Assembly: GCA_964600575.1 (NCBI GenBank)
Contig: CAZRJH010000002.1
Location: 124,298 to 188,297, forward strand
Origin: an uncultured Gammaproteobacteria bacterium
GTDB lineage: Bacteria > Patescibacteriota > Microgenomatia > UBA8517
DNA length: 64,000 nt
Direction: 5' to 3'
Shown here in pieces: positions 62,853-64,000 of the stretch (position 1 is its first letter; each line of letters opens with the position of its first letter). The notes beneath the pieces are model-generated. The model was not told where the DNA came from and did no database searches. It saw nothing but the letters and a program-made list of their open reading frames with translations. Made by a program: the position numbers and the translations under genes.

Positions 62853-63137
62853 TTATCTGAGCATCAAGTTGAATTGTGTAAGATTGCGGACACCTGTTAT
62901 GTTTCCAATGATAACTAAAACAAGGAAGGAGAGGAGTATGACTATAAGGCCTCCGATTGCGTAAGTCATTGTTTTTTGTGCCCCTTCGATTGCCTTTGGA
63001 TCTCCTCCGGAGGTGATATATTTGATTCCTCCCATAACCAGAAAAACAAATAGGATTATTCCTGCAAAAGTAAGAAAGCTTCTAACTAGACTCTCAAATA
63101 TTTTACTGAGGTCCGATATGGTGGCTATTCCATTCAT
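62853..63137 (-). CDS. VirB2/TrbC-like T4SS pilin paralog 1
   Basis: 94 aa with two hydrophobic helices flanking GGIKYITSGGDPKAIEGAQKT. Confidence 0.55.
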   Translation of the reverse strand: MNGIATISDLSKIFESLVRSFLTFAGIILFVFLVMGGIKYITSGGDPKAIEGAQKTMTYAIGGLIVILLSFLVLVIIGNITGVRNLTQFNLMLR

Positions 63138-63189
63138 AACAACAATTTTATTACAAACGAAACTTTAAAGCTATATCTACAAAAAGAGA

Positions 63190-63519
63190 TTATACAGAGG
63201 GGATAACCAAGGAGAAGATATCGATGTGGAAGAATGTGTTGATTAAAGCAACAATTGCCCAGGCTGCGAAAACTATAACCAAGCCTACTAAAGCTGCTGT
63301 AATTTGATTTCTAGCAGACTCCGTTTGAGCTTTGTCTCCGCCTGAAGCAATCCATTTGATACCTCCAATGACCAAAATAAAGAAGAAGACGATAGCTGCT
63401 ACAACTACTGTGAGTCTGATTAATGCCGAAATAAGACCAGGAATAGTAAGTTTGGCCAAAGGAGCAAACTGGGTTCCTTCACCCGGCTGCAAATTAATTT
63501 GTGCTAAAAGGTTGTTCAT
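63190..63519 (-). CDS. VirB2/TrbC-like T4SS pilin paralog 2
   Basis: 109 aa with the motif IGGIKWIASGGDKAQTESARNQITAALVGLVIVFAAWAIVALI. Confidence 0.55.
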   Translation of the reverse strand: MNNLLAQINLQPGEGTQFAPLAKLTIPGLISALIRLTVVVAAIVFFFILVIGGIKWIASGGDKAQTESARNQITAALVGLVIVFAAWAIVALINTFFHIDIFSLVIPSV

Positions 63520-63526
63520 ATGTATA

Positions 63527-63874
63527 TTATCGAATCCCTAGTGCCGCAATGTCAAGAGTCAGAATGTGTATATGGAAGAACGACTCTATAACTTTAATTA
63601 ATGCGAAAGCTGCAAAAGCCAAAACCATGCCTACCAAAGCGTTTGTAATCCTTGCTCGGGCGGTTTCAAGTGCTTGTTTGTCTCCGTTAGACGAAATCCA
63701 TTGGATTGATCCCAAGATGAGCATGAAGAAAAAGATAACTGAGCCGATTAAAAAGGCCATGCCAATAGCGGCCGGAACGGCTTTTTGAAAATAACTCTCA
63801 CCTGTGTTGTTTTCTAGTTGTCCAAGTGCAGGATTGCCGATTACCCCCGATGCTGCTGCTATTAAGTTGTTCAT
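63527..63874 (-). CDS. VirB2/TrbC-like T4SS pilin paralog 3
   Basis: 115 aa with the motif ILGSIQWISSNGDKQALETARARITNALVGMVLAFAAFALIKVI. Confidence 0.55.
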   Translation of the reverse strand: MNNLIAAASGVIGNPALGQLENNTGESYFQKAVPAAIGMAFLIGSVIFFFMLILGSIQWISSNGDKQALETARARITNALVGMVLAFAAFALIKVIESFFHIHILTLDIAALGIR

Positions 63875-63879
63875 ATTTG

Positions 63880-64000
63880 TTAGTTAGTAATAAGCTCGAA
63901 CATTGCCCCCACATCTAATATGTTGGGGAGCCCCATAAATGATCCGACTAAGTTTATTATAAAGATTGCAGATACGACAACAACAACTCCTATAATTGCA
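63880..64000 (-). CDS. Pilin-like paralog 4, C-terminal fragment (gene continues beyond the window end)
   Basis: The minus strand translates to ...AIIGVVVVVSAIFIINLVGSFMGLPNILDVGAMFELITN* with stop at 63880-63882. This matches the C-terminal helix of the other paralogs. Confidence 0.4.
   Translation of the reverse strand, partial: AIIGVVVVVSAIFIINLVGSFMGLPNILDVGAMFELITN

Follow-up and report, generated by a model that had tools for sequence, protein, structure and literature searches.

Eight divergent pilin-like genes kept in the same order across species, at a type IV secretion locus assigned to a Woesebacteria-like member of Microgenomatia

A large part of bacterial diversity belongs to Patescibacteria, whose members live attached to other microbes. 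The closest described counterparts of the locus treated here are the pilin-gene arrays reported from this phylum. Quinonero-Coronel et al. 2025 (PMC12102498), in the portions of the paper drawn on here, searched 3,035 Patescibacteria genomes with the Pfam profiles PF04956 and PF18895, defined an array as at least two pilin genes in tandem or one non-pilin gene apart in a genome with a Patescibacteria-type VirB4, and found arrays of 2–11 “VirB2-like” pilins in 383 Patescibacteria assemblies, abundantly in Microgenomatia, with the secretion system close to dnaA. By analogy with antigenic variation, the arrays are suggested there to give versatility towards different hosts, and literature cited in the same text holds that the virB2 copies of Bartonella and Anaplasma serve antigenic variation or varied host-cell contacts. 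In Southlakia epibionticum, the sole species tested, the secretion cluster including its predicted pilin series was essential, and the transposon-sequencing table lists SEML1_0014, 0017, 0018 and 0019 as GD/ES/ES (Wang et al. 2023, PMC10633639, as far as the sections and tables cited here extend). Here, we describe an instance of this published phenomenon, an array of eight pilin-like genes that begins in a 64,000-nucleotide (nt) stretch of DNA (GenBank assembly GCA_964600575.1, contig CAZRJH010000002.1, positions 124,298 to 188,297; this whole stretch is called the window below). To what is published it adds evidence that the genes form a fixed set, a promoter-like element in front of one gene and a variable domain in another.

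The genes were named p1–p8 in array order, and the 3′ end of the window holds p8, p7, p6 and part of p5. Lengths are given in amino acids (aa).

62853–63137, minus strand: p8, 94 aa, the last gene of the array; pilin-like; PF18895 31.8 bits; mean ortholog identity 57%
63138–63189, minus strand: p7–p8 intergenic region, with a weak promoter-like TAAAAT 7 nt before the p8 ATG
63190–63519, minus strand: p7, 109 aa, pilin-like; PF18895 33.9 bits; the most conserved paralog
63527–63874, minus strand: p6, 115 aa, pilin-like two-helix membrane protein and closest paralog of p7 (45% identity; hhalign p6/p7 99.9%); PF18895 21.5 bits (below 26.6); mean ortholog identity 53% (36 species)
63878–64000, minus strand: 3′ end of p5, last 39 codons (second helix and tail), with a TAA stop at 63878–63880; full length 123 aa, read from contigs L001 and L002; PF18895 37.0 bits, PF04956 19.0 bits (E 0.0017)

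An earlier note, made from the window alone, had described a tandem array of at least four divergent paralogs (94, 109 and 115 aa and a partial fourth), and this description held. BLASTP alignment gave 35% identity over 65 aa for p8/p7 (E 1e-15), 31% over 61 aa for p8/p6 (E 5e-12) and 45% over 80 aa for p7/p6 (E 9e-27), thereby indicating that the similarity among the paralogs is real and that the copies are old, with no recent duplication. The same note had named recent identical duplicates, and hence an assembly artefact, as the finding that would undo it; no such duplicates were seen, and an artefact is ruled out because the longest DNA repeat within the array was 59 nt at 71% identity. The proposed shared motif was exact in p8 and p6 and was found in p7 with a one-residue shift (GGDKAQ), and the partial gene contributes its second helix and tail in the window. 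Kyte–Doolittle profiles of p8, p7 and p6 each showed two strongly hydrophobic segments, and an AlphaFold2 model of p7 built with 22 orthologs gave a helical hairpin (H26–58 and H63–96, joined at G-G-D; mean predicted local distance difference test score 71), in agreement with the two helices that had been proposed. The G-G-D-K/P loop was conserved in the group consensus sequences, and residues 40–100 of p7 were almost invariant among its 22 orthologs. More than 1,400 homologs of p7 were found, the best 120 of which were 72–91% identical, and the 64-kb window contained no further family members elsewhere. Three open reading frames (ORFs) of 51–95 aa on the plus strand (63013–63168, 63332–63541 and 63501–63788) overlap the pilin genes; given the conservation and substitution pattern of the minus-strand frames, these antisense ORFs are by-products of hydrophobic coding sequence and not genes.

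As the note had expected, the array runs past the window end. Two Logan contigs (L001 and L002) encode the 115-aa protein without a single difference and match the last 1.3–1.9 kb of the window at 100% identity; they complete the array as eight consecutive genes on the same strand. The products of p1–p8 are 135, 103, 107, 109, 123, 115, 109 and 94 aa long, with intergenic gaps of 1, 2, 49, −4, 5, 7 and 52 bp, and the 123-aa product confirms that the partial gene belongs to the family. A divergently oriented gene lies upstream of the array; in relatives it is a SpoIID-domain gene.

Profile searches were judged against gathering scores of 26.6 bits for PF18895 (T4SS_pilin) and 27.9 bits for PF04956 (TrbC/VirB2). 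Six of the eight proteins passed the PF18895 score (p1 37.5, p2 30.1, p3 40.5, p5 37.0, p7 33.9 and p8 31.8 bits); p6 stayed at 21.5 bits and p4 had no match. Comparison of the ortholog alignments with hhalign linked all eight groups at 94–99.9% probability, except for p1/p4 (45%), and tied p6 and p4 to the PF18895 family through p6/p7 (99.9%) and p4/p2 (98.1%). The PF18895 architecture, a small protein with two hydrophobic helices and a short polar loop, was seen in the hydropathy profiles, the p7 hairpin model and the G-G-D-K/P loop, and eight tandem genes occur together with a VirB4-like ATPase, as in the arrays delimited in the cited part of PMC12102498. The locus is thus almost certainly a PF18895 pilin array of the Patescibacteria type. 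The earlier interpretation of the genes as “VirB2/TrbC-like” pilins is supported by the PF18895 matches, the architecture and the type IV secretion context, with a qualification as to the name. None of the eight proteins reached the PF04956 threshold (best p5, 19.0 bits, E 0.0017; p1, 8.3 bits; no match for the others), and six annotated VirB2/TrbC proteins from plasmids, each compared by hhalign with all eight ortholog profiles, gave probabilities of 0.2–4.2%, i.e., no signal. On the sequence comparisons made here, the name is valid for architecture and context only, as an analogy, and homology is not demonstrable. When the ortholog alignments of p7 and p5 were used as profiles against all chain sequences in PDB, only chance matches to G-protein-coupled receptors came up and no pilin, and Foldseek gave no match. 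The 40-bit cut-off of NF045849 (Mbov_0395 family pilin-like conjugal transfer protein) was not reached by p8 (26.2), p7 (23.0) or p6 (23.6), and PHROGs had no match for the pilins or their neighbours.

The array was compared among species by scanning one genome per GTDB species with a p7 profile, which yielded 75 loci. With reference-based assignment of the genes, the order p1–p8 was found in 47 species-level loci and the order p3–p8 in Shapirobacteria-like loci. Counts with group hidden Markov models (HMMs) in complete loci gave exactly eight genes in 44, six genes in 10 and seven genes in 4, with nine and eleven genes in single loci; the additional genes of larger arrays were mostly p6/p7-type copies. 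Over 87 core columns, identity was 51–73% within an array position versus 17–42% between positions, and the nearest neighbour came from the protein's own array position in 381 of 384 cases. Average-linkage clustering cut at eight merged {p2,p3,p8} and {p5,p6,p7}; it is the margins in nearest-neighbour and HMM-score comparisons, and not this cut, that separate the positions fully. The eight genes therefore encode homologous two-helix membrane hairpins that form eight orthologous groups, whose order is shared by dozens of species.

In the 36 loci that hold all ten genes, ortholog identity to the window proteins was 65, 49, 50, 61, 48, 53, 74 and 57% for p1–p8, and the flanking proteins were less conserved, at 36% for an 889-aa protein and 41% for a 604-aa protein. 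Relative to the nearest genome (L009), the ratio of nonsynonymous to synonymous substitution rates (dN/dS) was 0.02–0.12 in the five genes for which dS was unsaturated; in the other five dN was 0.10–0.14 and dS was saturated. The p7 protein showed no amino-acid change from L009 at 86% nucleotide identity and a dS of 0.86. All eight genes show purifying selection, and their products have diverged less than the secretion-system proteins encoded next to them. Separate conserved ortholog groups and low dN/dS together indicate eight non-redundant functions under purifying selection rather than a pool of variants.

The earlier note had offered both major plus minor pilins and a set of alternative subunits as explanations for the paralogs. 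Interchangeable pilus subunits, serving antigenic variation or a broader host range, would agree with the low identity within the array (17–45% here, and a mean of 25% in the survey as given in the cited part of PMC12102498) and with extra p7-like copies in loci L053, L060, L074, L077 and L079. However, each array position has its own ortholog group, with the order kept in 44–47 species, the secretion components encoded alongside have changed more than the pilins, and dN/dS is low where computable. The array contains no long direct or inverted repeats and no recombination-type repeats, silent cassettes or invertible segments; where a variable array of the Bartonella/Anaplasma type was looked for, fixed orthology, collinear order, low unsaturated dN/dS and a lack of long repeats were found. 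The genes are packed for co-expression, and the pilin series of Southlakia is reported to be essential, including four individual array genes (PMC10633639, in the table cited above). The truly variable part of the system is the N-terminal domain of p1, described below, and not the paralog set. An exchangeable repertoire is thus improbable; the data favour a fixed major-plus-minor set and argue against transferring the antigenic-variation model from Bartonella and Anaplasma. As a separate observation, the five expanded loci just named, all from Microgenomatia, have between two and four copies of the p6/p7 type instead of a single one and reach up to eleven genes in total; the type amplified in expanded arrays is that of the candidate major subunit.

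A second line of evidence concerns p7, in front of which a promoter-like element lies inside the array.

63526–63555, minus strand: sigma-70-type promoter-like TTGACA-N18-GATAAT, internal to the array; 6 nt between the −10 box and the p7 ATG

The −35 box of this element lies in the L-D-I codons of p6, and the −10 box holds the p6 stop codon. The pattern TTGACA-N18-RATAAT had a single match in the 64-kb window, the p7 element itself, where 0.02 were expected by chance, and the element shares first rank among the promoter-like sites of the window. In 946,685 bp of related loci, TTGACA-N18-NATAAT had 47 matches, 46 of them directly upstream of p7, and the regions upstream of the seven other paralogs had promoter scores at background. 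In 37 loci the −35 box is read as part of p6; in nine others p6 ends earlier, so that the element is non-coding there and has nevertheless been kept, indicating that it is the DNA itself that is constrained. Between the −10 box and the ATG lay 4–17 nt (median 10), and a Shine–Dalgarno-like tetramer was present in 2 of 47 loci, from which a leaderless or very short-leader p7 mRNA is predicted. Distant lineages have variant strong sites before p7, e.g., TTGACT-18-TATAAT with a Shine–Dalgarno sequence.

The same layout was seen at 44662–44633 (minus strand) before rpmH (about 44480–44620, minus strand; ribosomal protein L34) and at 48185–48156 (minus strand) before a gene for a 197-aa protein (47553–48146). 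Both sites have an 18-nt spacer and a −10 box that ends 9–12 nt before the ATG, and neither has a Shine–Dalgarno sequence. The likeness of these sites makes the p7-type promoter architecture plausible in this organism and suggests that leaderless or very short-leader mRNAs may be common in it. In the p7–p8 spacers of relatives (L010, L030, L038 and others; median 54 nt), a weaker TTGCTC-N17-TAGAAT recurs about 10 nt before the p8 ATG; in the window the motif is degenerate (TAGCTT ... TAAAAT). No consistent terminator hairpin was found after p7 in the 47 loci, and the idea that p7 forms a monocistronic unit was set aside on that account.

The third line of evidence comes from p1, the first gene of the array.

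L002 807–1214 (past the window end): p1, 135 aa; PF18895 37.5 bits

Read from the sequence, p1 begins with a putative classical, cleavable-type signal peptide ending in A-Y-A, and the N-termini of p2–p8 appear as 20–45 polar residues with no hydrophobic core and no signal peptide. The hairpin core of p1 is very conserved, with AGNPERLKAGQELLTSAISGLILLIFS nearly invariant, and it includes a conserved C...TAIGC loop. In relatives, an insert of widely varying length lies between the signal peptide and the core: the N-terminal part, including the signal peptide, measured 28–301 aa among orthologs (L005, L016, L031, L044, L070 and others), the Cys-rich modules reached about 270 aa, and the p1 of the window organism is a minimal version. 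The number of Cys residues in this part was always odd (1–19) in 37 loci, L002 to L075, so that the total is even once the Cys of TAIGC is counted. An even total is as expected for an extracellular disulfide-bonded domain and would place the N-terminus of p1 outside the cell. By these comparisons, the N-terminal domain of p1 appears as the only clearly fast-evolving part of the system. One locus, L070, has two p1 copies. Two scaffolds of a single Woesebacteria lineage (L003 and L004, from aquifer samples in ENA) carry foreign genes inside the array at locus coordinates 5759–6124 and 8362–9250, namely a PF05635 (23S_rRNA_IVP) gene at p1/p2 and an opposite-strand AbiEii-type toxin–antitoxin pair at p7/p8. 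These two junctions tolerate interruption, and may therefore be boundaries of transcription units.

The putative signal peptide of p1 bears on an earlier reading, proposed for Nanosynbacter lyticus TM7x, in which the hairpins would be Sec-secreted effectors delivered by the secretion system. The TM7x literature termed neighbouring small genes “putative effector genes”, and the TM7x array was formerly called a “Sec secreted array”, according to the part of PMC12102498 cited here. Seven of the eight proteins appear to lack a signal peptide, however, and two long hydrophobic helices span most of each protein; there are PF18895 matches, and conservation of the hydrophobic core is so extreme as to be atypical of effectors. 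It is very hard to reconcile these observations with secreted effectors, and we give that reading hardly any weight.

As a whole, this information makes it fairly probable, in our judgement, that the array encodes a fixed set of major and minor subunits that makes a filament or conduit to the host. The eight proteins would be non-redundant subunits of one assembly and not interchangeable parts. They would be inserted in the membrane so that the two termini face outwards and the G-G-D-K loop faces the cell interior, and the VirB4-like ATPase, with PrgI-like and polytopic (VirB6-like) proteins, would extract and polymerise the hairpins into a filament or conduit crossing the envelope towards the host cell. 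p7 would be the abundant major subunit, produced from a leaderless or short-leader transcript; p1 would be a tip or surface subunit, a candidate adhesin that displays the variable Cys-rich domain; and p2–p6 and p8 would be low-copy initiator or adaptor subunits comparable to the minor pilins of type IV pili and type II secretion. A bolder form of this model, in which the array is a fixed eight-part machine and the first major-plus-minor system of VirB2-type hairpins, with a nearly invariant p7 mass-produced from a leaderless-type promoter of its own within p6 and p1 as a tip subunit swapping modular disulfide-rich domains to match hosts, is tentative, and we place it a little short of an even chance.

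Several points speak against the proposed subunit set. In Patescibacteria, no type IV secretion system has yet been observed to form a filament, and a FEMS review rates the pilus merely as an “intriguing possibility”. N-terminal signal peptides appear to be missing from p2–p8, unlike in VirB2, TrbC and TraA, and neither PDB profile searches nor hhalign against the six VirB2/TrbC proteins gave sequence homology to structurally characterised pilins. Transcription from the p7 promoter may extend to p8 and the large genes beyond it, and the promoter need not mark p7 alone; its activity, the transcription start site and the relative protein abundance are predictions from the DNA. Finally, polar effects could inflate per-gene essentiality in the Southlakia transposon data.

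The conservation and collinearity data also fit a fixed-stoichiometry membrane hetero-oligomer, such as a channel or stalk comparable to the FliPQR gate or a c-ring, in which the hairpins would form the translocation pore of a monoderm cell with no filament. Both helices are strongly hydrophobic and p2–p8 appear to have no signal peptide, as such a pore would suggest; pili are normally lacking in Gram-positive type IV systems according to the literature, and one Southlakia array protein carries the ECOD assignment “F1F0 ATP synthase subunit C” in Table S2 of Wang et al., in the portion of that table cited here. On the other side, the dedicated near-consensus promoter and near-invariance of p7 fit a high-copy polymer better, and the extracellular Cys-rich modules of p1, at up to about 270 aa, suit a surface or tip position. 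Neither point is decisive, and we regard a pore with no filament as unlikely but worth keeping in view. If instead the array is a conserved differentiated set, as we favour, the choice of sensible experiments changes, since a high-expression subunit and a variable-surface subunit become identifiable: p7-type proteins would be the target for filament purification, antibodies and cryo-electron microscopy, and the N-terminal domain of p1 would be a candidate determinant of host specificity.

The genes downstream of the array include the remaining parts of the presumed secretion system.

60170–62839, minus strand: protein of 889 aa, secreted or in the membrane; first gene downstream of the array; mean ortholog identity 36%
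58206–60020, minus strand: 604-aa polytopic membrane protein with many hydrophobic helices; homolog conserved downstream in relatives, identity 41%
53749–54891, minus strand: 380-aa protein with an N-terminal PrgI/VirB3-like segment (PF12666 E 6.8e-5, 23.8 bits; threshold 27)
51023–53029, minus strand: VirB4-like secretion ATPase, 668 aa (PF19044 TraG P-loop E 1.1e-28; PF12846 AAA_10 E 4e-11)

Only 13 bp separate the p8 stop codon from the start of the 889-aa gene, and relatives encode a homolog (about 900 aa) after the array. The 889-aa protein had no match in Pfam, NCBIfam, PHROGs or PDB. Its C-terminal 200 aa (60170–60772, minus strand) were considered as a lytic transglycosylase because of a series of motifs recognised by eye (…FGEGLFNP…, …MGFNG…, …AAAYNL…); the segment had no match in Pfam at E up to 10 or by phmmer against PDB, and no such assignment is made. 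The 604-aa protein, which had no family match in Pfam or NCBIfam, is by its many helices and position a candidate VirB6-like channel subunit; VirB6 is described as hard to detect in Microgenomatia in the part of PMC12102498 cited here.

The VirB4-like and PrgI-like genes lie about 10 kb from the array on the same strand and are followed by dnaN, dnaA, rpmH and yidC. The presence of these four genes (44691–47562 and 43062–43895) beside the secretion cluster indicates that the secretion system adjoins the replication origin, in agreement with the cited statements of PMC12102498 on Microgenomatia. Named homologs came from Woesebacteria, Microgenomates and “Patescibacteria group” metagenome-assembled genomes (MAGs), and the nearest genome, GCA_964599625.1, had about 76% DNA identity, indicating a different species of the same lineage. 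The best explanation is that the end of the window holds the distal genes of an eight-gene pilin operon, which is chromosomal in a Woesebacteria-like member of Microgenomatia (Patescibacteria, or candidate phyla radiation) and is part of the origin-proximal type IV secretion system of that phylum. Many third-party (TPA) MAGs with this locus (L009, L012, L014, L015 and about 25 more) are titled “uncultured Gammaproteobacteria bacterium”, and two others “Alphaproteobacteria” and “Pseudomonadales”; judging from gene content and homologs, these proteobacterial labels are wrong. The sole Rfam match at the gathering threshold in the 64 kb was a tRNA gene at 21401–21472 (plus strand).

Among known systems, the arrays of Southlakia epibionticum ML1 (SEML1_0014–0019) and Nanosynbacter lyticus TM7x likewise consist of tandem divergent PF18895 paralogs, and the Patescibacteria arrays are also linked to genes of the VirB4, PrgI and VirB6 types close to dnaA. 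The 31–45% identity among the paralogs of the window is within the range given in the cited part of PMC12102498. The present array has eight genes in a Woesebacteria-like genome, versus six in Southlakia. One-to-one positional orthology, the p7 promoter and the Cys-rich domain of p1 are not reported in the sections of the papers on Patescibacteria arrays that are cited here, and the role in host versatility suggested in PMC12102498, as worded there in the part used, is not what the present conservation data indicate. Further systems among the closest known are the NF045849 proteins of Mycoplasma integrative and conjugative elements and the archaeal Ced/Ted conjugative pilins (PDB 8dfu).

VirB2 and TrbC (the Agrobacterium T-pilin and the RP4 P-pilin) resemble the array proteins in that they are small, have two hydrophobic helices and a short polar loop, and are encoded in a cluster with a VirB4 ATPase; the layout of p1, a putative signal peptide followed by two helices, is that of VirB2/TrbC. 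They differ in that there is no significant sequence relation (best PF04956 score 19.0 versus 27.9 bits) and in that their systems have one pilin gene and a VirB5 tip protein, whereas eight paralogs and no VirB5 are found here. Moreover, they belong to Gram-negative systems, whereas the host of the array is a monoderm and p2–p8 appear to have no signal peptide. Bartonella and Anaplasma phagocytophilum similarly have several tandem virB2 copies in one secretion locus; unlike in those, every copy here has a conserved ortholog at the corresponding position in other species, and the dN/dS values that could be computed are low. With type IV pili and type II secretion systems (PilA with FimU-PilVWXE; GspG with GspHIJK) no homology is claimed, since fold and machinery are unrelated: their pilins have one N-terminal helix, and the machinery includes a prepilin peptidase and a PilB/GspE ATPase. 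The analogy is a functional one and lies in a shared scheme, in which one abundant subunit is accompanied by conserved low-copy paralogs encoded together with it and by a tip subunit that carries an extra domain.

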